Assembly (NCBI GenBank): GCA_964414985.1
Contig: CAYPXA010000003.1
Coordinates: 5,055 to 69,054 of the forward strand
Origin: an uncultured Methanosarcinales archaeon
GTDB lineage: Archaea > Nanobdellota > Nanobdellia > Woesearchaeales > JAGWAF01
Reading direction: 5' to 3'
Length of the DNA: 64,000 bases
Below, in pieces: positions 7,292 to 41,913 of this stretch. The notes under the pieces were generated by a model, which was not told the origin of the DNA, did not search any database, and saw nothing but the letters and a program-made list of their open reading frames with translations. The position numbers were made by a program, and so were the translations under genes. The first letter of the stretch is position 1, and every line of letters begins with the position of its first letter.

Positions 7292-7387
7292 CATTGCCGC
7301 GCTCCGTGACTATTATTGAACCTCTTCTGTTCAGGAGTCACCTTTTGAGAAATGTCAAACATAGATTACTTCGCTTGGCGGCAATGC
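7292..7387 (+). repeat. Family-A MITE-like element copy A1 (about 96 nt, terminal inverted repeats CATTGCCGC...GCGGCAATG)
   Basis: Near-identical to copies at 7389, 12197, 14686, 30897, 36016, 36113 and 41682. Internal palindrome GTGACT...AGTCAC. Confidence 0.85.
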
Positions 7388-7388
7388 A

Positions 7389-7484
7389 CATTGCCGCGCT
7401 CCGTGACTATTATTGAACCTCTTCTGTTCAGGAGTCACCTTTTGAGAAATGTCAAACAACAAGTACTTCGCTAGGCGGCAATGC
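7389..7484 (+). repeat. Family-A element copy A2 (tandem with A1, one base spacer)
   Basis: 96 nt and >90% identical to A1. It differs only in the segment before the right TIR. Confidence 0.85.
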
Positions 7485-7512
7485 TTTAGAACACAGGCTA
7501 CGTAACTCTAAA

Positions 7513-8169
7513 TTACCTTATGAGCTGCCTTTTCTTCAGAATTTCCTTGAACTTCTCAAAATCAGGGCTGTGCTTGAACTCCTTCAGCTTTTCAGGGTCA
7601 AGCATCTTCATGACTTTTGTTGAGATTTCTGCAATCTCCTTTATGTCCTGAATGTCCTCGGAAATCTCATCGTTTGCATCCTCAAGCTCTTCTTCAGCTC
7701 CGGTCTTTGCAAACACCTTTCCAAAAATCCTTGAGAATAAGCCTTCCTTGGAAGACTCATCTTCATAATCATCTTCAATTTCATAGTCTTCAGGAGTTGG
7801 GGCGTGCTGCTTTCCTGTTGCCTCCTCGATGACAACCTCTTTTTCAGAATCATCAGCCTGCTCTTCGTTGCTTGAGGCAGCTTTTCCCTTCAGCCATCCC
7901 CACAAAGTTTTTTTCTTTGAGCCTTCCTCAAAATCAGTTTCCATTGATTTTTCCTCCTGCTCCTGCTGGCCTTTGGATTTTTTTGGAGCTTCGCCTCCGT
8001 AAGTTTCAACTTCAGGATGCATTCGGGCTTCTTCCTTCCTGCTTTTTCTGCTGAAAGACTTTGCAAACCCCATTATGCCAGTTTTTTCCTTTTTTCTTCG
8101 AACAGAAAGATATGATGAAATGTCTTTGTCAATCTCTTTGCGCCTTTCATTGTCCTGCGTGTTGTCCAT
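7513..8169 (-). CDS. Hypothetical acidic, K/E-rich low-complexity protein
   Basis: ORF of 218 aa. No recognisable catalytic motifs. Highly charged. Confidence 0.4.
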   Translation of the reverse strand: MDNTQDNERRKEIDKDISSYLSVRRKKEKTGIMGFAKSFSRKSRKEEARMHPEVETYGGEAPKKSKGQQEQEEKSMETDFEEGSKKKTLWGWLKGKAASSNEEQADDSEKEVVIEEATGKQHAPTPEDYEIEDDYEDESSKEGLFSRIFGKVFAKTGAEEELEDANDEISEDIQDIKEIAEISTKVMKMLDPEKLKEFKHSPDFEKFKEILKKRQLIR

Positions 8170-8252
8170 GCCTGAACGAAAGCTTTAGTTATATAAAAAC
8201 TTTATGATATTGCACCAAAAAGCTTATAATCCGGATAAAGAAATGAATTGCC

Positions 8253-9149
8253 ATGGAAAAAAGGAGTGAAAACACGCTCAAAAAGACCAGCCAATGCATA
8301 AGAAGTGCAGAGTTTGCAGGCCAATTCTATGCTTCAGGCAAAGATGAGCTTAATGAAGAAATAAGGCAGTGCTTTCTTTCTGAATTCGGGCCTGGCGAGC
8401 TTCCTTCAGGCAAATTAAACAATGGGATTGCAGGCGCAATATGCCCTCATGCAGGATTTATGTTTTCAGGGCCGTGCGCAGCGCATGCCTACAAGAAGAT
8501 TGCAGAGTCTCCAAAGCCGGATACTTTTGTAATAATCGGATTAAGCCACGAAGGAATGGGCTCGTGCATCTCACTTCAGGATTGGGAAACTCCATTAGGC
8601 ATTGCAAAGAATGACATTCAGCTTTCGAAGGCAATATCCCTCAAAGGAATACCTTCAGATGAGGATGCGCACAGCCATGAGCACTCAATTGAAGTCCAGA
8701 TTCCATTCCTTCAGTTTGCCTGCAAAAACCCAAAAATTGTGCCGATTATTGCAGGCGAAGGCATGCCTCCTGAAAAGATTGGCAGTGCTGTTGCAGCTGC
8801 TGCAAAAGAGCTTGGCAGGAAAATAATAATCATTGCATCAAGCGACTTTACCCATTACGGGCCTGCATACGGCTATGCTCCTTTCGGCAAAGATGCAAGG
8901 GAAAAAATGGAAAAGCTTGACATGGGAGCAGTTCAGAAGATAACTGCGCTTGACTCAAAAGGGTTTATCAGCTATGTTAAAAAGCATGATGCAACAATCT
9001 GTGGAAGGATGCCAATTGCATCCGTAATCGAGGCAGTTAAGCTGATGGGATCAGCAAAGGCATCGCTTCTGAAATACTACACTTCAGGCGACATTTCAGC
9101 TGAAAGCGGAAACTCTGTGGGATATGCCTCCATAGTGTTTGAAAAATGA
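8253..9149 (+). CDS. MEMO1-family protein (AmmeMemoRadiSam system protein B)
   Basis: Conserved motifs GAICPHAGFMFSG, IIGLSHEG and SSDFTHYGPAYGY are characteristic of the Memo/extradiol-dioxygenase-like family. Confidence 0.8.
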   Translation: MEKRSENTLKKTSQCIRSAEFAGQFYASGKDELNEEIRQCFLSEFGPGELPSGKLNNGIAGAICPHAGFMFSGPCAAHAYKKIAESPKPDTFVIIGLSHEGMGSCISLQDWETPLGIAKNDIQLSKAISLKGIPSDEDAHSHEHSIEVQIPFLQFACKNPKIVPIIAGEGMPPEKIGSAVAAAAKELGRKIIIIASSDFTHYGPAYGYAPFGKDAREKMEKLDMGAVQKITALDSKGFISYVKKHDATICGRMPIASVIEAVKLMGSAKASLLKYYTSGDISAESGNSVGYASIVFEK

Positions 9150-9484: not shown

Positions 9485-9487
9485 TCT

Positions 9488-10183: not shown

Positions 10184-10277
10184 AATTCCAATTCTATAGC
10201 TTGACTTTTAAAAACTTTGTGCAAAAGCAACATTTTTATAAATGGCGCAGTTTTTTCATATATGCCCAGGTTATAAT

Positions 10278-10411: not shown

Positions 10412-10432
10412 TTTTCCTTTTTTTAAAAGGTG
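10412..10432 (+). terminator. Oligo-T terminator after tRNA-Trp
   Basis: ttttcctttttttaaaagg directly follows the discriminator base. Confidence 0.45.
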
Positions 10433-10436
10433 CTGC

Positions 10437-12154: not shown

Positions 12155-12171
12155 GGCAGGCCTGCTAAAAT

Positions 12172-12292
12172 GAGTACTTCGCTGGGCGGCAATGCGCATT
12201 GCCTCGCTTCGTGACTATTATTGCATCGCTTCTTTAAAGGAGTCACGTGTTAATCAATATCAGAAAAGGAGTACTTCGCTGGGCGGCATTGC
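12172..12292 (+). repeat. Family-A element: partial right end (12172-12195) immediately followed by a diverged full copy A3 (12197-12292)
   Basis: GAGTACTTCGCTGGGCGGCAATGC precedes CATTGCCTCGCTTCGTGACTATTATTGC...GGCGGCATTGC. The full copy has more substitutions than the other copies. Confidence 0.75.
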
Positions 12293-14427: not shown

Positions 14428-14534
14428 GAAATCACATTTAAAGGGCAGGGACTTCCGGAAACACCCCCAAACGCTTTCTTTGGAAGTCCCGGCCTTTTAA
14501 TATTCCAGTTCTTGGGCATTGCTTCGTGAGGATT

Positions 14535-14653
14535 ATTGCCTTGCTTAAGGCCAAAACTCTAACTTTCTCAACTTTGTGTTCGTCGCGAGGGGATGCTCCC
14601 TACGGGAGCGCAGAACAATAAAAAACAATAGCGGGAGTTTTGGAGCAAGGCAA
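14535..14653 (-). repeat. Family-B MITE-like element copy B1 (about 119 nt, TIR TTGCCTTGCT...AGCAAGGCAA, palindromic core GAGGGGATGCTCCCTACGGGAGC)
   Basis: Reverse-complement match to 41796-41913. A partial arm also occurs at 36218-36250. Confidence 0.75.
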
Positions 14654-14685
14654 TCGTTGCAATGCAAAACACCACGGCAATGCTG

Positions 14686-14780
14686 CATTGCCGCGCTCCG
14701 TGAATATTATTGAATCTCTTCTGTTCAGGAGTCACCTTTTGAGAAATGTCAAGAACGAGTACTGCGCTGGGCGGCAATGC
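14686..14780 (+). repeat. Family-A element copy A4
   Basis: CATTGCCGCGCTCCGTGAATATTATTGAATCTCTTCTGTTCAGGAGTCACC...GGCGGCAATGC. It lies adjacent to B1. Confidence 0.85.
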
Positions 14781-14811
14781 TGTTAATGCTTAATCTGATT
14801 ATGCTGGCAAA

Positions 14812-16448: not shown

Positions 16449-16462
16449 ATTCTTTAGATTTT

Positions 16463-19533: not shown

Positions 19534-19959
19534 TTGAAAAGATTAATTTGCGCTTCTGCAAAAGCGCAGGTGGCAATGGAATACCTAATCATTATAGGCT
19601 TTGTTGCCATAGTCACAATCCCACTCATTATCATTTTTGAGACAAACTCAAAGGACACTACAGACGAAATATCTTCTGCCCAGGTATACCAGATATCAAA
19701 GAGGATTGCAGACGGAGCAGAGACAGTATACTATCTGGGAGAGCCTTCAAGGCTTACAATAAAAGCATACCTGCCCGACAAAATAAGCCAAATCTCAATA
19801 GGCAGCCACGAAATCTCATTCAAAATGAGGAGAGGCAGCATTGAGGATGACATTGTGGTATACACTCCCATCAATATTTCAGGAAACCTCTCCAAAACCC
19901 AGGGCGTCCATTACATAAGCATTGAGAGCAGGGGGGGATATGTTTGGGTTTCAGGATAA
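19534..19959 (+). CDS. Class-III signal peptide (type IV pilin-like) protein 1
   Basis: N-terminus MKRLICASAKA|QVAMEYLIIIGFVAIVTIPLIIIF. Charged n-region, Q at +1, E at +5, then a roughly 20-aa hydrophobic stretch. Confidence 0.65.
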   Translation: MKRLICASAKAQVAMEYLIIIGFVAIVTIPLIIIFETNSKDTTDEISSAQVYQISKRIADGAETVYYLGEPSRLTIKAYLPDKISQISIGSHEISFKMRRGSIEDDIVVYTPINISGNLSKTQGVHYISIESRGGYVWVSG

Positions 19960-20354
19960 GCAAAACTTTTTTTGGAAAGTCGCAGGTTGCGATGGAATTT
20001 GTAATGCTTGTCATGCTGGCATTCATGATAATGGCTGTTTTTTCAGTCATTGCAAGGGACAGGATGATGGACCTAAGGCAGGAAGAAGAGTATGCATATC
20101 TTCAGGATGTTGTTTCATACGTCAATTCTGAAATACTGATTGCATCAAATGTTGAAGACGGCTATTCAAGGCAGTTTTCAATACCTTCAACACTCAACGG
20201 AGTAATCTACAACATCTCATTTTCGCAGGGATACATAACTGCAGAGTCAGTTCACCATGAGTATGCTGCAAGGACTGCGGAAGTTGAGGGAAGCATTGCA
20301 AAAGGCCAAAACACAATATCAAAGAAAAATGGGACTGTCTATATCAATAGCTGA
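19944..20354 (+). CDS. Class-III signal peptide pilin-like protein 2
   Basis: N-terminus ...TFFGKS|QVAMEFVMLVMLAFMIMAVFSVIA. Overlaps the previous gene by 16 nt. Confidence 0.6.
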   Translation: MGFRISKTFFGKSQVAMEFVMLVMLAFMIMAVFSVIARDRMMDLRQEEEYAYLQDVVSYVNSEILIASNVEDGYSRQFSIPSTLNGVIYNISFSQGYITAESVHHEYAARTAEVEGSIAKGQNTISKKNGTVYINS

Positions 20355-20826
20355 TTCATCAGGCAGAAAGGCTCAGGTGTGGTACATCGACTTTATGGTA
20401 GGCCTGCTTATAATGATAACAGCAGCAGTCATCTACTTTAATTTCTACGGCAATCTTTCAGATGATTCTGAATCAGACTGGCAGGAGCTTATTATAGACT
20501 CAAAATCAATAAGCTCTGCGCTTATGTCATCAGGAAGCCCGCCTGGCTGGAATGCATCAAATGCAAGCTCAATAGGAATTACAGACGGAAACTACAGGAT
20601 AAACACAACCAAGTTTGAATACCTCAAATCAATGGAATATGCAGATGCAAAGGCTGCATTCAAGACCCGGTTTGATTTTCACATTTTCATAAAAGGCGCT
20701 GACAACAGCATAACTGATGAATACGGGATAAACTCAACAAGCCCTAAGCTTCTTGTCCAGACTGCAAGGTTTGCAATCTACAATTCAACAATCCAGAGGG
20801 TGGTGCTGCACTTATGGAAAAATTAG
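20329..20826 (+). CDS. Pilin-like protein 3 (start revised to internal ATG)
   Basis: MGLSISIADSSGRKA|QVWYIDFMVGLLIMITAAVIYF. The track ORF 20257-20826 overlaps the upstream gene by about 100 nt, so the ATG at 20329 is the likelier start. Confidence 0.5.
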   Translation: MGLSISIADSSGRKAQVWYIDFMVGLLIMITAAVIYFNFYGNLSDDSESDWQELIIDSKSISSALMSSGSPPGWNASNASSIGITDGNYRINTTKFEYLKSMEYADAKAAFKTRFDFHIFIKGADNSITDEYGINSTSPKLLVQTARFAIYNSTIQRVVLHLWKN

Positions 20827-24940: not shown

Positions 24941-25009
24941 GCAGCATGCCAACGCAAAGATTTTTAAAGTATTGGGAGAATATAAATGCAAAAGAGGTGA
25001 ATGGCATAG

Positions 25010-26164: not shown

Positions 26165-26196
26165 TGCTTGATTAATATCTAAACTAATATTCCAAA

Positions 26197-27810: not shown

Positions 27811-27930
27811 CGCATTCCTTAATTTATAATAATTAATAATCAGGAAAGGGTGGTTTGAATCAGGTCAAATATATTTGAGAGGATTGCAAAGTCATTCCCA
27901 GCCCTCGGGCTGAAGCTAAGGCAGTCTGGA

Positions 27931-28674
27931 ATGAAATACACGCCTGTTGAATTTGTAAGGCGCGCAGCATTCACCTCATTCTACATGACCACAATGATAA
28001 TCTTCCTTCTTGGAGCGCTTTTCATGAAGCTTGATATACTTTTGAGGGTGCTCTATTTTGTATTCCCCCTGCTTTTTGTAGGGATGTTTTTTTACTTTAT
28101 GAAGCTGCCAGAGGCAAAGATTATCAGGCGCGAAAAGGACATTGACAAGGAGATAGTGTTTGCAGGAAGGTTCCTTGTTGTCGAGCTTGAAAGCGGAGTG
28201 CCATTGTACAACGCGCTTGTCAATGTCTCTAAAAGCTACCCTACAATAGGAAAGGCAATAAACGAGATAATTGAGGATGTAGACCTTGGAGCAACAATCG
28301 AAGAGGCGATTGAGGAGGCAATTGAGCTCACGCCCTCGCAGGATTTCAGGAAGCTGCTCTGGCAGATAATGAATTCACTCAAGACAGGCGCAGATGTTTC
28401 ATCATCCCTCGGAGCAGTTGTTGACCAGATTACAAGGGAGCAGATAATTGCTGTAAAGGAATACGGCAGGAAGCTAAACCCCCTTGCAATGTTCTACATG
28501 ATGATTGCAGTAATAGTGCCATCATTGGGAGTTACAATGCTGATAGTGCTTTCAAGCTTTCTTTCATTTGAGATGGGGCTTTCATCACTTATGGTGCTTG
28601 TGCTTGCCATAGCCTTAATCCAGTTCATGTTCATAGCAATAATCCGGTCGTCAAGGCCTTCAGTTGAAATCTAA
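27931..28674 (+). CDS. TadB/FlaJ-like membrane protein (single T2SSF domain)
   Basis: N-terminal TM helices, a cytoplasmic T2SSF-like domain (LYNALVNVSKSYPTIGKAINEII...) and C-terminal TM helices. Confidence 0.65.
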   Translation: MKYTPVEFVRRAAFTSFYMTTMIIFLLGALFMKLDILLRVLYFVFPLLFVGMFFYFMKLPEAKIIRREKDIDKEIVFAGRFLVVELESGVPLYNALVNVSKSYPTIGKAINEIIEDVDLGATIEEAIEEAIELTPSQDFRKLLWQIMNSLKTGADVSSSLGAVVDQITREQIIAVKEYGRKLNPLAMFYMMIAVIVPSLGVTMLIVLSSFLSFEMGLSSLMVLVLAIALIQFMFIAIIRSSRPSVEI

Positions 28675-28675
28675 A

Positions 28676-29812
28676 ATGGAAAATCAGGCAAAAAATCCAG
28701 GAGAGAAGAAAAAGACAGGCTGGATAAGGCAGGAGGCTGAAAAGCTGACCCATTTTAAAGAGCATTACGAGCGCGCCAAGAAGAAAGAGAAGGAGATTAA
28801 GGAGAAGCGCAAGGATAAGATAAGGCAGCAGCGCAAGTACATGCTTAGGAACTACATTGAAAAGGCAGGATTAAGCATAAAGGAGGAAAGGGTTACAAAG
28901 ACTCTTTTCAATTTCTGCATTATAATCAACCTTATTATTTCCGCATACCTGATTTACTTTTTTTCATTTGAGTCTGATTCAAACCTTGTTTTTGTAGTCA
29001 TAGTCATGGCAATAGTATGGGCGCTGATTTTTTTTGGAGTGCTTTTCCTTGTCTGGCTGCTGTTTTACCTGATGCTTGACTTTAGGATATTCCAGAGAAA
29101 GACAAGCATAGAGGATGTCCTTGCAGACTTCCTCCAATTGACATCTGCAAACATCAGGGCTGGAATGCCTATTGACAGGGCGCTGTGGTTTTCAGTCAGG
29201 CCTAGGTTCGGGGTTCTTGCAAACGAGATTGAGATTGTTGCAAAGGAGACAATGAGCGGAAAGGACCTTGAGACTGCGCTTACAGACTTCACAAAAAAGT
29301 ACGACTCGCCTCTTCTTAAAAGGTCGATGAGCCTGCTTATTGAAGGCCTTAGGGCTGGCGGAGAAGTTGGGGAGCTCCTCAACAAGATTTCAACAAACAT
29401 ATCAGAATCAAGGATAATGAAGAAGGAGATGTCAGCAAACGTAACAACTTATGTAATCTTCATAACCTTTGCGACAGTTGCTGCAGCGCCTGTGCTTTTT
29501 GCGCTCTCAAACCAGCTCCTGCACATAATACATTCAATAGTCTCAACAATATCGCTTCCTTCCGGAGGTGTTGCAGGCTTTGGCGCTTCTTTCACAACTC
29601 TTGCAATAAAGCCTTCAGACTTCAGGCTTTTTTCAGTCATAATGCTTACAGTAACCTCATTTTTTTCAGCTGCAATAGTTGCAATCATAAGAAGGGGCAG
29701 CGTAAAGGCAGGCCTGAAGTACATTCCGTCATTCATAATCACTGCAGTAATCCTGTTTTACATTTCAGACTTCTTTTTGGGAAAAGTGCTGGGGTCTATG
29801 CTTTTGTCGTAG
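28676..29812 (+). CDS. TadC/FlaJ-like membrane protein (second T2SSF domain), K/E-rich N-terminus
   Basis: ATG 1 nt after the upstream stop (the track start at 28664 is TTG). T2SSF-like segment ANIRAGMPIDRALWFSV...GELLNKIS. Multiple TM helices. Confidence 0.65.
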   Translation: MENQAKNPGEKKKTGWIRQEAEKLTHFKEHYERAKKKEKEIKEKRKDKIRQQRKYMLRNYIEKAGLSIKEERVTKTLFNFCIIINLIISAYLIYFFSFESDSNLVFVVIVMAIVWALIFFGVLFLVWLLFYLMLDFRIFQRKTSIEDVLADFLQLTSANIRAGMPIDRALWFSVRPRFGVLANEIEIVAKETMSGKDLETALTDFTKKYDSPLLKRSMSLLIEGLRAGGEVGELLNKISTNISESRIMKKEMSANVTTYVIFITFATVAAAPVLFALSNQLLHIIHSIVSTISLPSGGVAGFGASFTTLAIKPSDFRLFSVIMLTVTSFFSAAIVAIIRRGSVKAGLKYIPSFIITAVILFYISDFFLGKVLGSMLLS

Positions 29813-29817
29813 CGCTT

Positions 29818-29832
29818 CAAAACATTTATATA
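29818..29832 (+). promoter_or_regulatory. BRE/TATA promoter AAAACATTTATATAT upstream of pilin gene 29854
   Basis: An identical 15-mer recurs upstream of the next pilin gene (30295-30309). Confidence 0.5.
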
Positions 29833-29853
29833 TTTGAATTTTAATTTTAGGGT

Positions 29854-30282
29854 ATGGCCAAAAAAGGACAGGCAGCAATGGAGTTTTTGATGACCTATGG
29901 CTGGGCTATACTTGCAATTCTTGCAGCAATAGGCGCGCTTGCTTATTTCGGTGTTTTGACTCCAACAAAGTTCCTGCCTGAAAAGTGCGTTTTTCCGCAG
30001 GGAATGGCGTGCCTTGACTTTCAGGTTGAGGCTTCAGATGCAAAGTTCGTGATACAGCCTGCTTTTGGCGCAGACGCATTCATTTACAATGCAACAATCG
30101 CAGAGTGCGATGCAGTCTTTATTGACAGGATTGTGGACAGCCAGCTTATGCTCAACTTTACGAACTGCGACAACGGAATTGAGGGAGACCAGTTCAGGGA
30201 AAAGCTTGTTGTGACATATTCTTTAAGGGGAAGCCCGATTGTCAAGCAGATGGATGCAGACGTAACCACGAATGTAAGATAA
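29854..30282 (+). CDS. Epd-like type IV pilin (class-III signal peptide, KGQ motif)
   Basis: MAKKG|QAAMEFLMTYGWAILAILAAIGALAYFGVL. Q+1/E+5. Resembles methanogen Epd pilin signal peptides. Confidence 0.75.
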   Translation: MAKKGQAAMEFLMTYGWAILAILAAIGALAYFGVLTPTKFLPEKCVFPQGMACLDFQVEASDAKFVIQPAFGADAFIYNATIAECDAVFIDRIVDSQLMLNFTNCDNGIEGDQFREKLVVTYSLRGSPIVKQMDADVTTNVR

Positions 30283-30294
30283 ATCTTTTCTGTC

Positions 30295-30309
30295 AAAACA
30301 TTTATATAT
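30295..30309 (+). promoter_or_regulatory. BRE/TATA promoter AAAACATTTATATAT upstream of pilin gene 30370
   Basis: Same motif as 29818. Downstream SD-like AAAAGAGGTG at about 30351. Confidence 0.5.
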
Positions 30310-30369
30310 CAGTATATTAATTTGTATATCAGAACAATCAATCTATACATAAAAGAGGTGAATAGCAAA

Positions 30370-30810
30370 ATGTTCAAAAAAGGACAGGCAGCAATGGAGT
30401 TCTTGATGACCTACGGCTGGGCAATCCTTGTTGTGCTTGCAGCAATCGGCGCTCTTGCATATTTCGGAGTATTGAGCCCTGACAGGTTTCTGCCAGAGAA
30501 GTGCACACTGCCATCAGGCATGGCGTGCTTAGACTTTACAGCAAGCTCAAGCCAGATTCAGTTGGTTATCCAGAACAGCGGCGGATTTGACATGAATAAT
30601 GTAAACGTGTCACTTGACGTTGAAGGCGGAAGTGTTGTTTCATGCTCACCAGCAGACGACTCAACATTGACTGATTCAGAGCAGGACACATTTACCTGCA
30701 CAGGCACATTTGCATCCGGAAAGCTTAAGGCTGACTTGAATGTTGCATATGTCAATGCACAGACACAATTGAGCCATACCAAAGCCGGCGAGCTTATTGC
30801 AAAGATATAA
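30370..30810 (+). CDS. Epd-like type IV pilin paralog (class-III signal peptide, KGQ motif)
   Basis: MFKKG|QAAMEFLMTYGWAILVVLAAIGALAYFGVL. N-terminal 35 aa nearly identical to the preceding pilin. Confidence 0.75.
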   Translation: MFKKGQAAMEFLMTYGWAILVVLAAIGALAYFGVLSPDRFLPEKCTLPSGMACLDFTASSSQIQLVIQNSGGFDMNNVNVSLDVEGGSVVSCSPADDSTLTDSEQDTFTCTGTFASGKLKADLNVAYVNAQTQLSHTKAGELIAKI

Positions 30811-30870: not shown

Positions 30871-30896
30871 GTATAAAATTTGATGGTTAGAATGAG

Positions 30897-30990
30897 CATT
30901 GCCGCGCTTCGTGCCACTAATTGCTCCGCTTCTAATCAGGAGCCACCTTTTGAAAGATGTCCAGAATGAGTACTGCGCTAGGCGGCAATG
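30897..30990 (+). repeat. Family-A element copy A5 (diverged internal sequence)
   Basis: CATTGCCGCGCTTCGTGCCACTAATTGCTCCGCTTCTAATCAGGAGCCACC...GGCGGCAATG. Confidence 0.8.
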
Positions 30991-31015
30991 AAAACAAAAA
31001 CAAAAAAATAAAAAT

Positions 31016-31447
31016 TTACCGTCTTCCTTTTCTTGAGCGCTTCGGCTTTGCCCTGGATGCAGCTTTTCTTGCTGTTTTCCTGGCTTTTCGTGCAGCCTTT
31101 GAAACTGCCTTCTTTGCGCCTTTCCTTGCTTCAGCCATTGCTTTCTTTGCAATCCTTCTTAGCTTTGGCTTTGCGCGCATTGCAGCCTTCCTTGCCCTCT
31201 GCTTTGCCTCGGCAATAAGCGGCTTTGCCTTCTTCATCTCCTTCTTAACTTCCTGCCTGACAAAGTTCTGAAGCCTCTGCCTTTCCAGGTTTGCTTCAGC
31301 AGTAATCCTTGAAACAAGCTCTTTTGCCTCTTTCCGGCTTATCACTCCTGACTTTGCCATCTCATTAACTTCCTTGGCGATTTCCTTCTGCGTGATTCTC
31401 GCAGCCTTAACTCCAAGGCTTACCAGCTTTTTTGCTGTCTTAAACAT
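31016..31447 (-). CDS. Highly basic small protein with Ala/Lys/Arg-rich histone-H1-like tail (putative nucleic-acid-binding)
   Basis: C-terminal AKKAMAEARKGAKKAVSKAARKARKTARKAASRAKPKRSRKGRR. Lies 4 nt downstream of the UbiB-like gene on the same strand. Confidence 0.45.
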   Translation of the reverse strand: MFKTAKKLVSLGVKAARITQKEIAKEVNEMAKSGVISRKEAKELVSRITAEANLERQRLQNFVRQEVKKEMKKAKPLIAEAKQRARKAAMRAKPKLRRIAKKAMAEARKGAKKAVSKAARKARKTARKAASRAKPKRSRKGRR

Positions 31448-31451
31448 CTGC

Positions 31452-33125
31452 TCACCTCCATATCGAGCCTTCTTTTACTATTGAAGCCAAAAGCATGATT
31501 CCCATGAATCCTGCAATTGTATAAATTATCAAAGAGGGAAATGACATCCCCCAAAAATCAGGCCCTGTGCCTGAATGCATCAGAAGCGCACCGCCTATTA
31601 TCAGTGCAGCCATTATCATTGCGTATGAAAGCCTGTTGCTGCTCCTGTCAATGTCGGATGCAAGCCTTTTCAAATCTGTATCCTCAATGTCTATCTTGAC
31701 TACTCCCTGCTTTATTCGCTGCAGCACTGAAAGTGTTTCTGAAGGTATCATCTCAAGCACTTCTGCAATGTCCTGCGACTTCCTCATAAAGTTTGCAAAC
31801 GACTCTTTAGAGATTGCCTTTTTCTTCAGGTAGCCCTGGACATATGCCTGGGATTCCTTTACAAAGTTGAATCTCGGGTTTAGCATCATTCCTGTTCCTT
31901 CTGCAGTGAGAAGCGCCTTTGCAAGAAGCACCATGTCAGGAGGCATCTTTATGCTGTTCTTTATGCATGAGTCAAAAAGCCTGTGGAGCATATGAGTTAC
32001 CCTTACCTGCCTCATTTCTGAGCCATACCATCCGCTGACAATGTCATTTACATCGCTCTTGAATTTTTCAAGGTCTGCGCCAGGCTCAGGCCTGCCGATT
32101 AAAAGAAGCTGGTTTACAACTCCGTCAATATCCCTATTGACCAAAGCAACATAAAGCTTTACACCCTCCTTTCTCAAATAAGGTGTGAGGCTGCCTACTA
32201 TTCCAAAATCAAGAAGTGCGATTGAGCCCTTTTCAAGCACGAGAATGTTGCCTGGGTGCAGGTCTGCGTGGAATACGCTCTGCTCAAAAACCTGCTTGAG
32301 GCAGGTGTTGATTATGGAGCTAAGGACTTTTTCTTTGGGAAATTCTTTCTTGTCCCGTATAAGGTCGCTTAGCTTTCTTCCATGAATATATTCCATGGTA
32401 AGCACCCTCTTAGAGGTGTAATCCCTGTAAAGCTTTGGAATCCTGACATATTCTGCATCCTTAAGATTCTCGTAAAACTGCTCGATGTTTCCTGCCTCAA
32501 CAAGGAAGTTAAGCTCGTTTTTGGTGTACCTCTCAAACTCCTTTGCGATAGCCATTGGAGAGTATTTTCCGAATGCCTTTGACTTCTCAAGCCGGGCAGC
32601 AACATGGTAAATAATGTCTATGTCTGCCTTGAAAGCATCTTCAGCTCCAGGCCTCTGCACTTTTACAACAACCTTCTTTCCGTTTTTTAGGACTGCATAA
32701 TGCACCTGGCTGACTGATGCAGCGCCGATTGGCTTGTCTGAAAATGTGCTGAAAACTTTTTTCAATGGCTTGCCAAGCTCTTTTTCAATTATCTCTTTTG
32801 CCTTTGCAGGCGAGAAAGGCGGAACCTTGTCCTGCAGCTTTGCAAACTCTGCGCACAAACTTTCAGGAACAAGGTCAGGCCTTAAGCTAAGCATCTGCCC
32901 TAGCTTGACATAAGCTCCGCCAAGCTCCTCAAATGACTTCCTTAGCCTGGATTCAGGAGAGTCAGGCTCTGCATATTTGTGGAATGCAATCTTTTTTGAG
33001 AAAGGAAGGTGGGCTTTCAGGCCGTACTTCTGTATAAAATAGCCAAGGCCGTTCCTGAAAAGGACATTTACAACCCTTGAAACCCTCTCAAGGTCCCTTA
33101 TGCCGGAAGAAATTCCCATGTTCAC
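31452..33125 (-). CDS. ABC1/UbiB-family atypical protein kinase
   Basis: Motifs GGAYVKLGQMLSLRPDLVP and HADLHPGNILV. C-terminal TM helices. Confidence 0.8.
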   Translation of the reverse strand: MNMGISSGIRDLERVSRVVNVLFRNGLGYFIQKYGLKAHLPFSKKIAFHKYAEPDSPESRLRKSFEELGGAYVKLGQMLSLRPDLVPESLCAEFAKLQDKVPPFSPAKAKEIIEKELGKPLKKVFSTFSDKPIGAASVSQVHYAVLKNGKKVVVKVQRPGAEDAFKADIDIIYHVAARLEKSKAFGKYSPMAIAKEFERYTKNELNFLVEAGNIEQFYENLKDAEYVRIPKLYRDYTSKRVLTMEYIHGRKLSDLIRDKKEFPKEKVLSSIINTCLKQVFEQSVFHADLHPGNILVLEKGSIALLDFGIVGSLTPYLRKEGVKLYVALVNRDIDGVVNQLLLIGRPEPGADLEKFKSDVNDIVSGWYGSEMRQVRVTHMLHRLFDSCIKNSIKMPPDMVLLAKALLTAEGTGMMLNPRFNFVKESQAYVQGYLKKKAISKESFANFMRKSQDIAEVLEMIPSETLSVLQRIKQGVVKIDIEDTDLKRLASDIDRSSNRLSYAMIMAALIIGGALLMHSGTGPDFWGMSFPSLIIYTIAGFMGIMLLASIVKEGSIWR

Positions 33126-33247
33126 CTCTTTTAGAAGAATAAATTGGGAGGATTGTTTATAAATTTTGTCAAAATAAGAGATGGCAGATGAAAGAATATG
33201 CAGAATTGCATCATCAAATTTATATATTCCTAGTGCACGAAGAAGTT

Positions 33248-33697
33248 AACATGAAAATAGTAAGCCTAAAAAGAAGCCATGTTGATGACGCTGCAAGAGT
33301 CATGGCTGAAGCGTATAACATCAGCTATCGCCTTGCAAAAAAGGAGATAACATCCAAAGAGCGAAAAGAAGAGTGGATGGTTGCAATAATAGACTGCAAA
33401 GTTGCTGGATTTATGGGCTATTTTTTTGACCATTCGCATTATGCCAATTTCTTGGAGGATATTGCTGTAAGCAAGGAGCATAGGCACAAGGGAGTTGCAA
33501 CAGCGCTCCTAAAAAAATTCGTGGAAATAAGCAGGAAAAGCCAGCCTAAAAAACAGCCCTACTGCCTTAGCAGCACCAAAATATCCAACAAGGCAAGCAT
33601 CAGGCTGCACTTGGGTTTTGGATTCCGCAAATTAGGCACACTAAAAAAGCTGCATTACGGGCAAGATGAAATATTTTTTGGGTATAAAATGTGGTAA
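33248..33697 (+). CDS. GNAT-family N-acetyltransferase
   Basis: Motif A IAVSKEHRHKGVATALLKKFVE. The start is taken at the internal ATG (MKIVSL). The track ORF begins at 33188. Confidence 0.65.
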   Translation, partial: NMKIVSLKRSHVDDAARVMAEAYNISYRLAKKEITSKERKEEWMVAIIDCKVAGFMGYFFDHSHYANFLEDIAVSKEHRHKGVATALLKKFVEISRKSQPKKQPYCLSSTKISNKASIRLHLGFGFRKLGTLKKLHYGQDEIFFGYKMW

Positions 33698-33767
33698 AAA
33701 ATTCTGGAAAATCATTTTCTCGCCTAAATTCCAAACCTTTTTAAAGTATTGCTGACTTTGAAAAATT

Positions 33768-35978
33768 ATGTACGAGCTTATCATAACGGAAAAGCCGAAT
33801 GCTGCAAAGAAGATTGCAGAGGCTCTTGCCGACGGAAAGCCATTGAAAAAAAGCCTGAACGGAGCTCCTTACTACGAGGTTACCCATTCAGGAAAGGATC
33901 TTGTTGTTGGATGCGCAGTAGGCCACCTTTTCGGGCTTAGGCAGAAGGACAAGAAGGCAAAGCTGCCTATATTCGACATAGAATGGGCTCCAACATATGA
34001 GATTACAAAGTCAGGCGCATTCTCAAAGAAGTATGCTGCTGCACTGAAAAAAGTAGCAAAGGATGCAACTTCATTTACAGTTGCAACAGATTACGACGTC
34101 GAGGGTGAAGTGATAGGCCTGAATGTCGTCAGGTTCATCTGCAGGAAAAACGACGCCCGCAGGATGAAGTTCTCAACTCTTACAAAGGACGAGCTTGTCC
34201 AGGCATATGAGCACTGCCAGAAAACCCTTGACTGGGGCCAGGCAAATGCAGGCGAGACAAGGCACATTCTGGATTGGTATTACGGAATTAATGTTTCAAG
34301 GGCTCTTACAAAGGCAATAAGCTCAACAGGCCATTTCAAGCTGATGTCCACAGGAAGGGTTCAGGGGCCTGCGCTCAAGCTTATTGTCGAGAAGGAAAAG
34401 GAAATCCAGGCATTCAAGCCAGAGCCGTACTGGATGGTTTCGCTCAGCGGAGCTGTAAAGGCAGGAAGCTTTGAGGCTTGGCACGAAAAAGAAAGGATAT
34501 GGGACGAGAAAGAGGCAGACAGGATATTTCAGAAAGTCAGAGGAGAGAAGTCTGCTTCTGTAAAAGACGTTGAGACAAGCAAGTTCACGCAGGCACCGCC
34601 TTATCCGTTTGACCTTACTTCGCTTCAGATTGAGGCGCACAAATGCGTAGGCATATCTCCAAAGGCAACTCTTGAGATTGCGCAGGACCTTTACACTGGA
34701 GGATATATTTCATACCCAAGAACATCTTCGCAGCAGCTGCCTGAAGCAATCGGCTACAGGAAGATAATAAGCGATCTTTCAAAATCAAAGAATTTCAAGG
34801 CAAATGCAGAATTCCTGCTTGCAAGAAAGCAGCTCAAGCCAAACAACGGCAAAAAGGTCGACCCTGCGCACCCGGCAATCTACCCTACAGGAATTGTGCC
34901 AAAGCTGGACGACAGGAAGATTAAGATTTATGACTTGATTGTCAAGAGATTCATGGCAACATTCGGAGATGACGCTGTAAGGCAGACAGTCAAGGCTTTA
35001 ATTGACGTTAAAAGCGAAATATTCATTGCAAAAGGCACAACAACAATCGAGAAAGGATGGCACACTCTTTACAGCCCTTATGTCATGCTCAAGGAGGAAG
35101 AGCTTCCTGCAATGGCAAAGGGCGAAGCTGTCAAAGTTAGCGATGTTGCAAAGCATGACAAAGAGACAACACCTCCCAAAAGGTACACTGAAAGCTCAAT
35201 AATAAAAGAGCTTGAGAAGAGAAACCTTGGAACAAAGGCGACAAGGGCCCAGATTGTGGACACCCTTTTCCAGAGGGGTTATGTCGACGGAAAGGCAATT
35301 CAGGCAACAGAGATAGGCATAAGGACTTCAGACACTCTTTCAAAGCACTGCCAGCTGCTGGTCGACGAAGCCATGACAAGGCATTTTGAAGAGGAGATGG
35401 ACATGATAAGGGACAAGACAAAAACCCCTGACAATGTCCTGGACGAAGCAAGAAAAGTTGTAACTGAAATTGTTGATGAGTTCAGAAAGGATGAGAAGGC
35501 AATAGGCGAAGAGCTTTATGCTGCAAACAGGGAAACAGTCAATGTGATGACCCAGGTCGGAAAATGCCCTATATGCCACGATGGAATTCTTGCAATAAGA
35601 AAGGGAAGGTTCGGCCATTTCATTGCGTGCGGAAAATACCCTGAGTGCAAGACAATATTCTCAATACCCCAAGGACTTGTCAAGCCTACAGGAGAGGTAT
35701 GTTCATTCTGCGGCTACCCAAAAGTCAAGATTATCAAGAAGAGGAAAGGCCCCCAGGATGTCTGCATAAATCCAAAGTGCCCAGGAAAGATGAAGGGCTA
35801 CACTTCAGAGCAGATGAAGGAGATGGATGATATTGGCACTGGAAAGACTGAAAAGCCATGCCCGAAATGCAAGGTTGGAAAGCTTGTCCTTAGGAAGTCA
35901 ATCTACGGCGCGTTTATCGGCTGCAATCAGTATCCGAAGTGCAGGTACACGCAGAAGATTGAGAAGCAGGAAGAGTAA
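33768..35978 (+). CDS. topA: DNA topoisomerase IA (archaeal topo I/III type) with C-terminal C4 zinc ribbons
   Basis: TOPRIM ELIITEKP...VATDYDVEGEVIG. Active-site region ISYPRTSSQ (catalytic Tyr). Three C-terminal CxxC...CxxC zinc ribbons. Confidence 0.9.
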   Translation: MYELIITEKPNAAKKIAEALADGKPLKKSLNGAPYYEVTHSGKDLVVGCAVGHLFGLRQKDKKAKLPIFDIEWAPTYEITKSGAFSKKYAAALKKVAKDATSFTVATDYDVEGEVIGLNVVRFICRKNDARRMKFSTLTKDELVQAYEHCQKTLDWGQANAGETRHILDWYYGINVSRALTKAISSTGHFKLMSTGRVQGPALKLIVEKEKEIQAFKPEPYWMVSLSGAVKAGSFEAWHEKERIWDEKEADRIFQKVRGEKSASVKDVETSKFTQAPPYPFDLTSLQIEAHKCVGISPKATLEIAQDLYTGGYISYPRTSSQQLPEAIGYRKIISDLSKSKNFKANAEFLLARKQLKPNNGKKVDPAHPAIYPTGIVPKLDDRKIKIYDLIVKRFMATFGDDAVRQTVKALIDVKSEIFIAKGTTTIEKGWHTLYSPYVMLKEEELPAMAKGEAVKVSDVAKHDKETTPPKRYTESSIIKELEKRNLGTKATRAQIVDTLFQRGYVDGKAIQATEIGIRTSDTLSKHCQLLVDEAMTRHFEEEMDMIRDKTKTPDNVLDEARKVVTEIVDEFRKDEKAIGEELYAANRETVNVMTQVGKCPICHDGILAIRKGRFGHFIACGKYPECKTIFSIPQGLVKPTGEVCSFCGYPKVKIIKKRKGPQDVCINPKCPGKMKGYTSEQMKEMDDIGTGKTEKPCPKCKVGKLVLRKSIYGAFIGCNQYPKCRYTQKIEKQEE

Positions 35979-36015
35979 ATAGCTTGGTTCTTATCAGTTC
36001 AAAATCAAACACGAG

Positions 36016-36110
36016 CATTGCCACCTAGCGCAGTACTTGTTCTTTGAGTTTGATTAACACGTGACTCCTTTGAAGAAGCGAGAGCAAATGCGACACGAAG
36101 CGCGGCAATG
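36016..36110 (-). repeat. Family-A element copy A6 (reverse orientation)
   Basis: CATTGCCACCTAGCGCAGTACTTG...GTGACTCCTTTGAAGAAG...GCGCGGCAATG. Confidence 0.8.
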
Positions 36111-36112
36111 CG

Positions 36113-36206: not shown

Positions 36207-36217
36207 CAAAATTAGTT

Positions 36218-36250
36218 AGTGCATTGAGTTTTGGCCTTAAGCAAGGCAAT
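36218..36250 (+). repeat. Family-B element fragment (one terminal arm only)
   Basis: GAGTTTTGGCCTTAAGCAAGGCAA matches the B-element TIR arm. Confidence 0.55.
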
Positions 36251-36319
36251 GTTTAATCTGATTCTGCGCCTGCCATTTTTAAATAGCTTTAAATAATGCC
36301 TTAAACATTCCAATATGCC

Positions 36320-37339
36320 ATGATAAACACAGGCTTTGAAAAAACATTCCTGCAGAAGGACTCTTTTACAGACATCCTCGGCCAGGACGAAACAAAGAGG
36401 CAGATAAAGTCAGCGCTCCTTATGGGCAGGCACATAATCATATCAGGCCCTCCTGGAGTTGGAAAGACAACCATTGCAAGGAACATTGCAAGGCTTTTGC
36501 CTGAAATTACAGTAAATGACTGCGACTTCCACTGCGAGCCGAAGAGCCCAATCTGCCCTTCGTGCATTGCAAAGAAAAGCCAGAAGACAAAAAAGATAGG
36601 CGGAGAGCAGAGGTTTGTGAGGATACAGGGAAGCCCTGACCTTGCAGTCGAGGACCTTTTGGGTGACATAGACCCAATCAAGGCTTTGAAGTTCGGGCCT
36701 ATGAGCATTGAGGCATTCACTCCAGGAAAGATATTCAAGGCAAACAACGGAATGCTTTTCTTCGATGAAGTCAACAGGTGCCCTGAAAAGCTCCAGAACG
36801 CGCTGCTTCAGGTGCTTCAGGAAGGCGAAGCAACAATCGGAAGCTACTCTGTCGAGCTTCCTGCAAATTTCATTTTTATCGGAACAATGAACCCTGAAGA
36901 CTCTTCAACAGAAAGGCTTTCAGATGTTTTTGCAGACAGGTTTGACATAATCCACATGGGATATCCTGAAACACTCGAAATCGAGAAAAGCATAGTATTA
37001 TCCAAAGGGAAAAAGCTGGATGTTGATTTTTCAGAAGAGCTTATCAGCCTTGCAGTCCTTTTTGTGAGGCTGCTAAGGGAAAACAAGGAGCTTGAGAAAA
37101 AGCCGTCTGTAAGGGCTTCAATCGGGCTTTATGAAAGGGCGCAGGCAAATGCATACCTCGCAAAGAGGAAGTCTGTTACTGCAGAAGACATTGCAGATGC
37201 CATAATCTCTGTCTTAAGCCACAGGATAGAGCTCAAGCCTTCTGTAAAATACCTGCAGACTAATGAAGATTTCTTAAAAGTCGAGCTCAAGCAGTTTGCT
37301 GAAGAGCACGAAGAATTTGAAAGCGGTGGTTGCCGGTGA
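36320..37339 (+). CDS. ChlI/BchI-like AAA+ ATPase (Mg-chelatase subunit I homolog, MoxR-related)
   Basis: Walker A ISGPPGVGKTT. ChlI-type Cys insertion LPEITVNDCDFHCEPKSPICPSCIAKK. Walker B MLFFDEVN. Sensor motifs. Confidence 0.75.
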   Translation: MINTGFEKTFLQKDSFTDILGQDETKRQIKSALLMGRHIIISGPPGVGKTTIARNIARLLPEITVNDCDFHCEPKSPICPSCIAKKSQKTKKIGGEQRFVRIQGSPDLAVEDLLGDIDPIKALKFGPMSIEAFTPGKIFKANNGMLFFDEVNRCPEKLQNALLQVLQEGEATIGSYSVELPANFIFIGTMNPEDSSTERLSDVFADRFDIIHMGYPETLEIEKSIVLSKGKKLDVDFSEELISLAVLFVRLLRENKELEKKPSVRASIGLYERAQANAYLAKRKSVTAEDIADAIISVLSHRIELKPSVKYLQTNEDFLKVELKQFAEEHEEFESGGCR

Positions 37340-39378: not shown

Positions 39379-39501
39379 GCCGCTTCACTCACTAAATTAT
39401 GCAATGCTTATGCACAGTTTATGCACTGCTTTATCACTGGGAATTTAAAAAGGTGAGGGATTCCCCATATATTTATAAATGAACTTCAATAATTCATTGT
39501 T

Positions 39502-40104: not shown

Positions 40105-40122
40105 AAATCAAAGGCGATTCTA

Positions 40123-41676
40123 ATGATGCTTTCAAACGCAATAAAAAACAAGGAGCTTGCTTCTGAAGAGGAATGGTCTTCATACATAGGCAGCCTCAAG
40201 GCTGCAGGAAAGCCTGAAAAGGATGGGCTCAAAGAAGCGCTTGTTCTGGCAGTTGAAAAGAGAATCCCAAAAAAGAGGTTCGGCATACTTTTTTCAGGCG
40301 GAGTAGACTCATCATTTATTGCGCTTCTGTGCAGCAGGGCAAAGGCTGATTTTGCATGCTATGCTGTAGGCCTTGAAGGCTCTGCAGACATTGAATCTGC
40401 AAAGAGGGCTGCAAAGCTCATGAAGCTGGACCTTAAGGCAAAGATTTTGACAATGAAAGAGGCAGAGTCTGCAATTAAAAAAGTGACAGAAATAGTAGGC
40501 CCTGATGTCATGAAAGTTGGTGTAGGCGCAGTAATCTATGAGGCTGCAAAGCTCGCAAAAAAAGACGGCATTGAAATAGTGTTTTCAGGGCTTGGCTCTG
40601 AAGAGGTATTTGCAGGATACGAAAGGCATGTAAAATCAAAGGACATAAATGACGAATGCTGGAATGGGCTTAAGGCAATGCACCAGCGCGATTTTACAAG
40701 GGATTATGCTATTGCTGAAGAGCTGGGCGCTGAAATAATGACTCCTTTTCTTGACAAGGATGTTATCATTCAAGGAATGCAGGTGCCTGCACACAAAAAA
40801 ATCAAGGGAAGCAACAAGAAGCTGATACTAAGAGAGATTGCAGAGGAAATGGGGCTTCCAAAGGAGATTGCATGGAGGCAGAAAAAGGCTGCGCAGTACG
40901 GCTCAAGGATACAGAAGGCAATGAAATCACTTGCATCAAATGCAGGATTCAATAGGATAACAGAATACCTCATGCAGTTCTACAAGCCGAGAAATATGAA
41001 GCTGGGCGCGCTTGTAAGCTCGGGAAAAGACAGCATCTATGCAATGTACACAATGATGAAAAGAAACTATGAGATAGGCTGCATGATAACAATGAAAAGC
41101 ATTAATCCTGACTCTTACATGTTCCACTCTGCTGCTGTCGAGATGGCAGCGCTTCAGGCAAAGGCAGCAGGCATACCAATAATAGAAGTTGAGACTAAAG
41201 GCGAGAAGGAGGAAGAGCTTGCAGACCTGAAAAATGCGCTTGAAATGGCGCAGAAACAGCACGGCATAAAAGGAATTGTGAGCGGAGCGCTGTACTCAAG
41301 CTATCAGAAAGAAAGGGTTGATAGGATTGCGGAATCTTTAGAACTCAAGTCGTTTGCGCCTTTGTGGCACATTGACCAGGAAAAGCTTTTGAAGGACATA
41401 ATCAGCACAGGATTTGAGTTTATGCTCACCAAGATTGCTGCAGAAGGCCTTGACAAGTCTTGGCTCAACAGGGAGATTACTGAAAAGGATGTTGACAGGC
41501 TTGTGCTCCTCAACAAGAAAGTCGGGCTTAACATTGCATTTGAAGGAGGAGAGGCAGAGTCTTTGATGGTTTCAGGCCCAATCTTCAAAAAGAGGATAAA
41601 AATCATCGAGTCTGAAATCGACGAGGAAAGCCCTATTCTTGCAACACTCAAGATAAAAAAGGCAGAGCTTGTTTAG
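40123..41676 (+). CDS. Fusion of an asparagine-synthetase-like PP-loop domain (no glutaminase domain) with a Dph6/MJ0570-like diphthine-ammonia ligase-type PP-loop domain
   Basis: N-terminal half FGILFSGGVDSSFIALL...VFSGLGSEEVFAGYERH (AsnB C-domain). C-terminal half LGALVSSGKDSIYAMY...GIVSGALYSSYQKERV...FAPLWHIDQEKLL (alpha-ANH Dph6-like). Confidence 0.6.
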   Translation: MMLSNAIKNKELASEEEWSSYIGSLKAAGKPEKDGLKEALVLAVEKRIPKKRFGILFSGGVDSSFIALLCSRAKADFACYAVGLEGSADIESAKRAAKLMKLDLKAKILTMKEAESAIKKVTEIVGPDVMKVGVGAVIYEAAKLAKKDGIEIVFSGLGSEEVFAGYERHVKSKDINDECWNGLKAMHQRDFTRDYAIAEELGAEIMTPFLDKDVIIQGMQVPAHKKIKGSNKKLILREIAEEMGLPKEIAWRQKKAAQYGSRIQKAMKSLASNAGFNRITEYLMQFYKPRNMKLGALVSSGKDSIYAMYTMMKRNYEIGCMITMKSINPDSYMFHSAAVEMAALQAKAAGIPIIEVETKGEKEEELADLKNALEMAQKQHGIKGIVSGALYSSYQKERVDRIAESLELKSFAPLWHIDQEKLLKDIISTGFEFMLTKIAAEGLDKSWLNREITEKDVDRLVLLNKKVGLNIAFEGGEAESLMVSGPIFKKRIKIIESEIDEESPILATLKIKKAELV

Positions 41677-41681
41677 GGCTG

Positions 41682-41776
41682 CATTGCCGCCCAGCGCAGT
41701 ACTTCTTGTTTGACATTGCTCGAAAGGTGACTCCTGAACAGAAGCAGTCCAATAGTCGACACGGAGCGCGGCAATG
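41682..41776 (-). repeat. Family-A element copy A8 (reverse orientation)
   Basis: CATTGCCGCCCAGCGCAGTACTTC...GGTGACTCCTGAACAGAAGC...GCGCGGCAATG. Confidence 0.8.
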
Positions 41777-41795
41777 CTTAACAATCAGTTTACTT

Positions 41796-41913
41796 TTGCC
41801 TTGCTCCAAAACTCCATTTGTTGTTTCTGATAGTTCTGCGTTCCCGTAGGGAGCATCCCCTCGCAACGAACAAGATGTTTAGAATTATTGAGTTTGGGCC
41901 TTAAGCAAGGCAA
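41796..41913 (+). repeat. Family-B element copy B2
   Basis: TTGCCTTGCTCCAAAACTCC...CCCGTAGGGAGCATCCCCTCGC...GGGCCTTAAGCAAGGCAA. It is the reverse complement of B1. Confidence 0.75.

Follow-up and report, generated by a model that had tools for sequence, protein, structure and literature searches.

The 64,000-nt stretch of DNA analysed here (the window; contig CAYPXA010000003.1 of assembly GCA_964414985.1, from an uncultured archaeon) carries archaeal housekeeping genes recognized by Pfam, among them genes for Taw1, a Dph6-AsnB fusion, topoisomerase I, AhcY and an Lrp regulator, as well as a type IV pilus-like locus. The best named homologues of their products come from Candidatus Woesearchaeota and Nanoarchaeota, identity to them being at most 74% (topoisomerase I), 67% (Dph6) and about 82% (AhcY); the host is therefore a DPANN archaeon without a close sequenced relative in the collections searched. 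Identical proteins were found only in Logan assemblies of SRR14492170-73. Six intergenic loci in the window hold all copies of two families of short non-coding repeats, family A (96-97 nt) and family B (120 nt). We think it probable that A and B make up a lineage-specific family of non-autonomous mobile elements resembling MITEs (miniature inverted-repeat transposable elements), which has been reshaping the genome of a Woesearchaeota-like DPANN lineage.

Copies and anatomy of families A and B

Copies of both families were found by nhmmer with profiles built from the copies; the census was cross-checked by repeat finding and by direct reading, and all agreed (Table 1, where copies are named by their first position). 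Family A has eight full copies (E-values from 1e-25 to 1e-30) and one 3′ partial copy, while family B has two full copies (both with E of about 1e-41) and one 5′ fragment. A reading made earlier from the sequence alone (the sequence-only reading) had listed eight full and one partial A copies at positions that turned out to be right to within 1 nt, and its B copies at 14535 and 41796 and fragment near 36218 were all recovered. That reading had named a restriction of the copies to this region as a finding that would speak against it; at least one A copy lies outside the window, 6.8 kb to the left, and no A copy was found in the 9.6 kb to the right. About 80 kb of the genome thus contains nine full or near-full A copies, one partial A copy, two full B copies and one B fragment at seven loci. 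There are 25 occurrences of the A end motif GCATTGCCGC, at most one mismatch being allowed, where 5.7 ± 2.3 were expected; that count was reached in none of 100 shuffles. All six loci together cover 1.8% of the window, or about 18% if only its intergenic DNA is counted.

Table 1. Positions of the A and B copies, their remnants and the inverted block (window coordinates)
Feature	Coordinates	Strand	Basis and remarks
A copy, subtype A1, first unit of head-to-tail dimer	7291..7387	+	nhmmer E 5e-29; 94% identical to A7388
A copy, A1, second dimer unit, abuts A7291 without spacer	7388..7484	+	nhmmer E 2e-30
5′-truncated A, last 29 nt only, 12 nt past ABC-2 permease stop	12167..12195	+	nhmmer E 1e-5, model positions 69-97
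A copy, subtype A2, CACGTGTTAATCAA in second linker	12196..12292	+	nhmmer E 3e-27, alignment
Stub like A 5′ end (GCATTGC..TTCGTGAGGATT), directly 5′ of B	14515..14534	+	weak nhmmer E 0.08; aligns with 41915-41938 stub
B copy	14535..14654	+	nhmmer E 1e-41; fold z-score −4.5 on this strand, −5.5 on the other
Remnant like A 3′ end (..CACGGCAATGC), between B and next A	14655..14683	+	sequence reading; 1-mismatch end motif at 14674-14683
A copy, A1	14685..14780	+	nhmmer E 8e-30
A copy, left breakpoint of inverted block; flanking pilin-like and basic-protein genes converge	30896..30991	+	nhmmer E 5e-27; synteny
Inverted block: basic 143-aa ORF, ABC1 kinase, GNAT, topoisomerase I	31016..35978		tblastn synteny against L122, L123, L144
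A copy, A2, right breakpoint of inverted block	36015..36111	−	nhmmer E 3e-25
A copy, A1, abuts A36015	36112..36207	−	nhmmer E 3e-27
B fragment, 29 nt of the 5′ end, same orientation as A36015/A36112 and upstream of them	36222..36250	−	nhmmer E 2e-5
A copy, A1, begins 4 nt past dph6 stop codon	41681..41777	−	nhmmer E 1e-29
B copy	41795..41914	−	nhmmer E 4e-41; 84% identical to B14535
Stub like A 5′ end (GCATTGCTCGAGTTCAGTGCAGAA), 5′ of B	41915..41938	−	alignment with 14515-14534 stub; sequence

Family A is bounded by terminal inverted repeats (TIRs), GCATTGCCGC/GCGGCAATGC, which are perfect over 10 nt and, with imperfections, reach about 18 nt; across the copies the terminal helix shows 95% pairing and is mostly invariant. 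The left end has the form (GC)ATTGCC-RC-GCTC and the reverse complement of the right end GCATTGCC-RC-CCAGCG; the ends are polar, and the end pair of an A-type element can be written GCATTGCC...GGCAATGC. In family B the TIR is ATTGCCTTGCT/AGCAAGGCAAT plus CCAAAACTC/GAGTTTTGG. The terminal motif ATTGCC..GCT is common to both (B starts with ATTGCCTTGCT) and, judged by sequence, A and B are two related families.

Pairwise identity among A copies ranges from 67 to 94%, with essentially no insertions or deletions; a 1-nt indel between copies, together with stop codons, rules out a conserved open reading frame (ORF). Variation along the element is not uniform (permutation test on lag-1 autocorrelation, p=0.003). 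There are 0.08 differences per site in the first 18 nt, 0.10 in the last 22 nt and 0.14 in the central block GCTTCTnnnnAGGAGTCAC, and the figures are 0.45 for the first linker and 0.31 for the second, both linkers being hypervariable in sequence and fixed in length (15 and 24 nt). B14535 and B41795 are 95-96% identical in their ends and core, GCGAGGGGATGCTCCCTACGGGA, and 60% identical in their linkers. Conservation of ends and core is what would be expected if both were needed for propagation. Two A subtypes can be told apart, with A2 (12196 and 36015) differing in the second linker. An internal GTGACT...AGTCAC palindrome, earlier given as a trait of family A, is intact in only three of the eight copies.

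The copies are frequently joined. B adjoins A at all three B sites, always with B 5′ of A in the same orientation, so that the side-by-side occurrence of the two families noted before stands with a count of three loci instead of two; a stub of ∼20-24 nt resembling the 5′ end of A precedes each full B copy. Tandem A copies abut without spacer. The two head-to-tail A dimers of the sequence-only reading are confirmed, and there are three A-A junctions once the partial copy is counted. The members of one dimer, A36015 and A36112, are only 71% identical (against 94% for A7291 and A7388) and thus do not represent a recent duplication.

Orthologous junctions in relatives and a 5-kb inversion

The window was compared with five loci, about 70 kb in total, from three related Woesearchaeota lineages: L121, L122 and L145 (the latter two from GCA_016932755.1), L123 and L144. 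The nearest available relatives show 67-74% amino acid identity for Dph6 and topoisomerase I. Neither nhmmer nor the end-motif search detected A or B in the about 70 kb of syntenic relative sequence. Orthologous junctions in L122, L123, L144 and L145 are free of elements, in a comparison that spans about the distance between genera or families. In L145, dph6 and taw1 share an overlap of 14 nt, in place of the 281-nt gap that is filled by A and B in the window, and the spacer between the topoisomerase gene and the next gene is 1 nt in L121 and L123 and 79 nt in L122. Thus, the elements are not needed at these sites. The relatives of AhcY (P0002 and P0007) are not syntenic and are uninformative for the sites at 7-15 kb.

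The comparison also revealed a rearrangement. The gene order in the window is pilin1(+) pilin2(+) A(+) basic(−) ABC1(−) GNAT(+) topo(+) A(−) A(−) B fragment MoxR(+) VWA(+). The order in L122 is basic(−) ABC1(−) topo(+) pilin2(−) pilin1(−) T2SSF, that in L123 is VWA(−) MoxR(−) basic(−) ABC1(−) topo(+), and that in L144, which is collinear with window positions 36-49 kb, is topo(−) ABC1(+) basic(+) ... MoxR(+) VWA(+) ... Dph6 ... Taw1 ... NucS. One inversion of positions 31016-35978 turns the window order into the order common to L122, L123 and L144. The breakpoints of this inversion are exactly the A loci, A30896 (+) on one side and A36015/A36112 (−) on the other, in opposite orientation; the chance of both breakpoints falling on A loci was estimated as (6/59)x(5/58), roughly 0.009. 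Such a pattern is the classic footprint of inverted-repeat recombination or of intramolecular transposition, and either may have been the route. A30896 has no more than about 18 identical bases in common with A36015 or with A36112; the inversion event must therefore be old or enzyme-mediated. A misassembly as the source of the inversion seems unlikely, given that a shared stretch of this length is below the usual assembly k-mers.

Gene content around the inversion differs as well. An ORF for a GNAT acetyltransferase (PF00583, E 6e-12) is located at 33188-33697 (+), in the 642-nt spacer between the divergent ABC1-kinase and topoisomerase genes; in L122, L123 and L144 this spacer is 42-108 nt long and gene-free, and the ORF looks like a lineage-specific gene gain within the inverted block. 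L144 has two extra ORFs (309 and 889 aa, no Pfam match) between the basic-protein and MoxR genes, at L144:2471-6224, which are absent from the window (36208-36320) and from L123; therefore gene content at the basic/MoxR junction also varies among relatives.

Location at gene 3′ ends and tests of RNA structure

To characterize the location of the elements we used a curated list of 60 genes, which define 59 junctions, 12 of them convergent. Four of the six loci fall in convergent junctions (hypergeometric P=0.013), in agreement with what had been observed in the sequence-only reading. The other two are in tandem junctions just past a stop codon, and none is in a divergent junction. Each locus lies no more than about 90 nt from at least one gene 3′ end, and both orientations are represented among the copies, also relative to the upstream gene.

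A location between convergent 3′ ends raises the question of whether the elements primarily function as bidirectional transcription terminators or insulators, an idea that the sequence-only reading had put beside mobility. Stable terminal stems would suit such a role: fold z-scores of A are about −2.2 to −2.9 in the + orientation and −1.4 to −2.9 on the other strand (values that largely reflect the terminal stem), and those of B14535 are lower still (Table 1). In subtype A1, + orientation, the hairpin is followed by CTTTTG. This is the only case of a hairpin followed by TTTT, the T-run being missing in A2 and on the opposite strand. A scan for hairpins plus T-runs, whose criteria are bacterial, showed no enrichment over shuffles (10 sites versus 9.0 expected and 16 versus 13.4), with A and B flagged only incidentally. 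Archaeal RNA polymerase terminates at oligo-T tracts and is not known to need a hairpin. Besides, the orthologous convergent pairs of the relatives are element-free and even overlap. With copies in both orientations to the upstream gene, a scan that is not enriched and interior helices without covariation, the terminator or insulator function is left without positive support, and we consider it very unlikely.

The structure itself was assessed by RNAalifold and by pair counting, in which the terminal inverted repeat came out as the only robust helix. The helices of the interior reach 72-83% pairing, with breaks in many copies, and their covariation is not above that in shuffled or slid controls. 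The ‘strong predicted RNA structure’ claimed earlier thus comes down essentially to the terminal inverted repeat.

Three conserved modules separated by two hypervariable segments of fixed length bear a superficial likeness to guide RNAs, and one could think of a family of small structured non-coding RNA genes in which the conserved boxes serve as a scaffold and the linkers as guide or target-recognition segments. The state of the interior helices just described argues against it. A search of Rfam gave no match at the gathering score, and at E≤5 none of the seven matches overlapped A or B, so that the elements do not correspond to a known structured RNA family, a correspondence that, by its own terms, would have spoken against the sequence-only reading. 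Readings of the boxes as C/D-box, K-turn or bulge-helix-bulge motifs were rejected on inspection by eye, which revealed no other recognizable motif. There is no conserved promoter-like sequence, the flanks differing locus by locus; tandem copies abut directly; and the truncated copies and stubs resemble decaying DNA, not genes. An RNA gene family is, in our opinion, a most improbable explanation.

Several other features of the region were recorded. Dph6 (40123-41676, +) has an N-terminal asparagine-synthase-type domain fused to it; the fusion is common to Woesearchaeota/Nanoarchaeota homologues, many of which have a further N-terminal GATase extension. The type IV pilus-like locus (19534-30810) is syntenic with L122. 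It includes small ORFs with a weak class III signal-peptide match, a gene for a 1053-aa VWA protein, a T2SSE ATPase gene (26197-27810), two T2SSF genes, and paralogous pilin-like ORFs (29854-30282 and 30322-30810) that share a direct repeat of 168 nt, 78% identical. Two coding repeats were seen: an in-frame acidic E/D-rich repeat with 12/18-nt periodicity at 57848-58081, in an ORF without Pfam match (56906-58093), and an in-frame K/E-rich 18/24-nt repeat at 5081-5226, inside a 1198-aa Ig-domain surface protein (2453-6049).

Element ends elsewhere and the probable mobility of the elements

Several searches had no success. The strict family-A pattern had no match in JGI metagenome contigs and IMG/VR, the TIR-only A pattern and the B pattern had none in IMG/VR, and the B+A composite had no blastn match among PLSDB plasmids or INPHARED phages. 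Short repeats of this kind, with TIRs, are already well known in bacteria and archaea; because there was no match in Rfam, IMG/VR, PLSDB and INPHARED, we regard A and B as new families of a known kind of element. A scan of 596 Gb of genome contigs with the 17-nt pattern CATTGCCNCGCTYCGTG returned at least 112 stretches, almost all of them bacterial chance matches, and the pattern was set aside as too unspecific; a Methanosarcina match to it (L088) lies within a coding sequence and is not an element.

An ends-only search of metagenome contigs yielded 17 stretches with 14 distinct sequences. Eleven of the 14 are in high-GC contigs, mostly in coding sequence, a count expected by chance from a composition estimate. 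The remaining three are in low-GC contigs (L128, L134 and L138, GC 33-39%), where about 0.02 chance matches were estimated; at least one of these contigs is archaeal. These three elements are intergenic, are 93-96 nt long, have GCATTGCCRCGCTCGCATA...GCTCGCTRGGYGGCAATGC in common and keep the left/right asymmetry of A. Their interiors are unrelated to A, and their neighbours are unrelated as well (MinD/methyltransferase, HhH-GPD glycosylase/DUF2127 and DUF1761/RFC). At position 9 of the terminal stem, most window copies and L134 have G-C, L128 and L138 have A-T, and the window also shows A.C and G.T intermediates; these changes would fit pairing of the ends and co-recognition of both ends alike. 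A 93-nt stretch at the very start of a high-GC (67%) contig (L129:28-120), whose 5′ part matches A at 17 of 21 nt (GCATTGCCGCGCTCCGCGAGC) and whose 3′ part is ...GGTGGGCGGCAATGC, probably matches by chance, the pattern being GC-rich.

A and B have several of the properties by which MITEs are recognized: they are short (MITEs span about 50-800 bp) and non-coding, have TIRs of at least about 10 bp, are dispersed in multiple copies and show presence or absence at orthologous sites (at about genus or family distance). The suggestion of ‘active non-autonomous mobile elements’ in the sequence-only reading thus gains support for its mobile part from the TIRs, the occurrence in both orientations and unrelated contexts, the absence in relatives, the inversion breakpoints and the conserved ends. 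Much of this is directly observed, namely the census and architecture, the lineage specificity, the empty orthologous junctions, the A copies at the breakpoints and the ends conserved in distant relatives. The word ‘active’ fares worse, in view of identities of only 67-94%, no target-site duplications and no cognate transposase among the window ORFs. In a published MITE census (PMC11602168) a Woesearchaeal genome, at about 105 MITEs per Mb, ranks with the archaea of highest MITE density.

How could the elements have spread? The genome would encode, at some other place, a recombinase or transposase that recognizes the shared polar termini in trans and moves or copies the elements into gene-poor spots. 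Insertions would persist for the most part shortly downstream of a stop codon, and chiefly in the gaps between convergent genes, where they do no damage. Later copies would tend to land beside or inside older ones, giving rise to the A-A dimers and to a composite of B within A, and the inversion may go back either to A copies recombining with each other or to intramolecular transposition.

Several observations weigh against the mobile-element interpretation. No direct repeat of 2 nt or longer flanks any of the 10 copies checked for target-site duplications; the palindromic GC at the A ends is indistinguishable from an extension of the TIR and is absent from B. The missing duplications are weak evidence, because the linkers are 31-45% diverged and short duplications could have eroded. 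A Pfam scan of 56 window ORFs revealed no transposase, integrase or HUH domain, which bears out the earlier remark that the window has no transposase, and no autonomous partner is known. The near-indel-free constant length and the conserved central block exceed the strict need of an end-binding transposase. Present-day homologous recombination between the breakpoint copies appears unlikely from the little identity they share. There is no strain-level empty/filled polymorphism, all same-population Logan contigs (those of SRR14492170-73) being 100% identical to the window. Finally, the part of the genome examined comes to only about 80 kb. As a side observation, Logan contigs L113-L119 and L142 stop inside A or B copies (window 7321, 7430, 12227 and 14607); since the window itself holds several copies, these breaks are not independent proof of copies elsewhere.

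The lack of visible target-site duplications, the strong conservation of ends and central block next to near-saturated linkers, the constant length, the end asymmetry kept in distant relatives, the tandem clusters and the position of all loci within about 90 nt of a gene 3′ end, mostly between convergent genes, would also be explained if A and B were palindromic elements maintained by the host or otherwise disseminated, an archaeal counterpart of REP, BIME and ERIC sequences. Such elements would have spread without target-site duplication, by an HUH/Y1-type enzyme or by gene conversion and not by classical DDE transposition, and their terminal hairpin and central block would act at the DNA or RNA level, possibly in mRNA 3′-end protection, in binding of nucleoid or topology proteins or in insulation of convergent transcripts. 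Single ends of A and B, however, are not hairpins and have no REP-like GTAG motif, no RAYT/Y1 gene is present among the 56 window ORFs scanned, and the same junctions in relatives have spacers of 0-100 nt with no element. Both orientations and survival in ‘safe’ sites are equally expected of selfish DNA. We therefore hold this explanation to be possible but unlikely.

Comparison with known systems gives a similar picture. Prokaryotic MITEs include SM1-SM4 of Sulfolobus, the Correia elements of Neisseria, enterobacterial ERIC/IRU and cyanobacterial Nezha. Like these, A and B are about 100 nt long, non-coding and hairpin-forming, with TIRs of at least 10 nt; they are multi-copy and intergenic, often near gene 3′ ends and in either orientation; and their expansion is lineage-specific, with insertions that are nested or in tandem, and goes together with a rearrangement. 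Unlike these, A and B have no visible target-site duplication and no known partner insertion sequence, and their ends-plus-core modularity and near-constant length are unusually strict.

With REP, BIME and REPIN sequences (mobilized by RAYT, a Y1/HUH enzyme) A and B have in common that they are extragenic palindromic repeats at 3′ ends and between convergent genes, arranged in tandem and without target-site duplication; the total hairpin of a REPIN doublet is also about 100 nt. REP units, though, are self-palindromic 20-40-mers with a conserved 5′ tetranucleotide, while the ends of A and B pair only end to end. To our knowledge RAYT genes have been described in bacteria only, and the host of A and B is archaeal. 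Membership in REP/REPIN was rejected, as the ends are not self-complementary and no Y1/HUH domain was found in the window ORFs scanned. The IS200/IS605-derived PATEs of haloarchaea and cyanobacteria are likewise short, non-autonomous elements that depend on DNA hairpins and leave no target-site duplication, but they have no TIRs and carry a separate subterminal hairpin at each end, whereas true TIRs are present in A and B and separate hairpins at the ends are not; an IS200/605-type reading was rejected on this end anatomy. Integron attC sites (the VCRs of Vibrio) are imperfect palindromes of similar size, homogeneous within a species and more conserved at the ends than in the centre. In contrast to them, A and B lack the RYYYAAC/GTTRRRY core sites (their ends are GCATTGCC), occur in both orientations, have housekeeping genes between copies instead of a one-directional cassette array and have no integrase nearby. 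With no core sites, mixed orientations and no integrase among the window ORFs scanned, they were not assigned to attC.

The polar ends shared by elements with unrelated interiors admit a broader idea, namely that the A-type elements represent an undescribed DPANN superfamily of hairpin elements without target-site duplication, having polar ends GCATTGCC-RC-GCTC ... CGCT-RGG-YGGCAATGC, a fixed length of ∼95 nt and replaceable interiors, and being moved by a non-DDE mechanism or maintained by the host as a structural or regulatory module. We see this as speculative and rather improbable; if true, the elements would be an archaeal analogue of the bacterial REP/RAYT system and not decayed derivatives of insertion sequences.

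A and B may be of interest to specialists for an inversion that repeats bound in a DPANN genome of reduced size and for polar ends common to elements with unrelated interiors. Short-read contigs end inside the repeats, which sets a limit to the quality of metagenome-assembled genomes of this lineage. The conserved polar ends can serve as a search key for the mobilizing enzyme in Woesearchaeota. Small, compact DPANN genomes are commonly assumed to hold little selfish DNA; it appears that short mobile repeats shape gene order even where genomes are this reduced, here by a 5-kb inversion that includes the gene for topoisomerase I.

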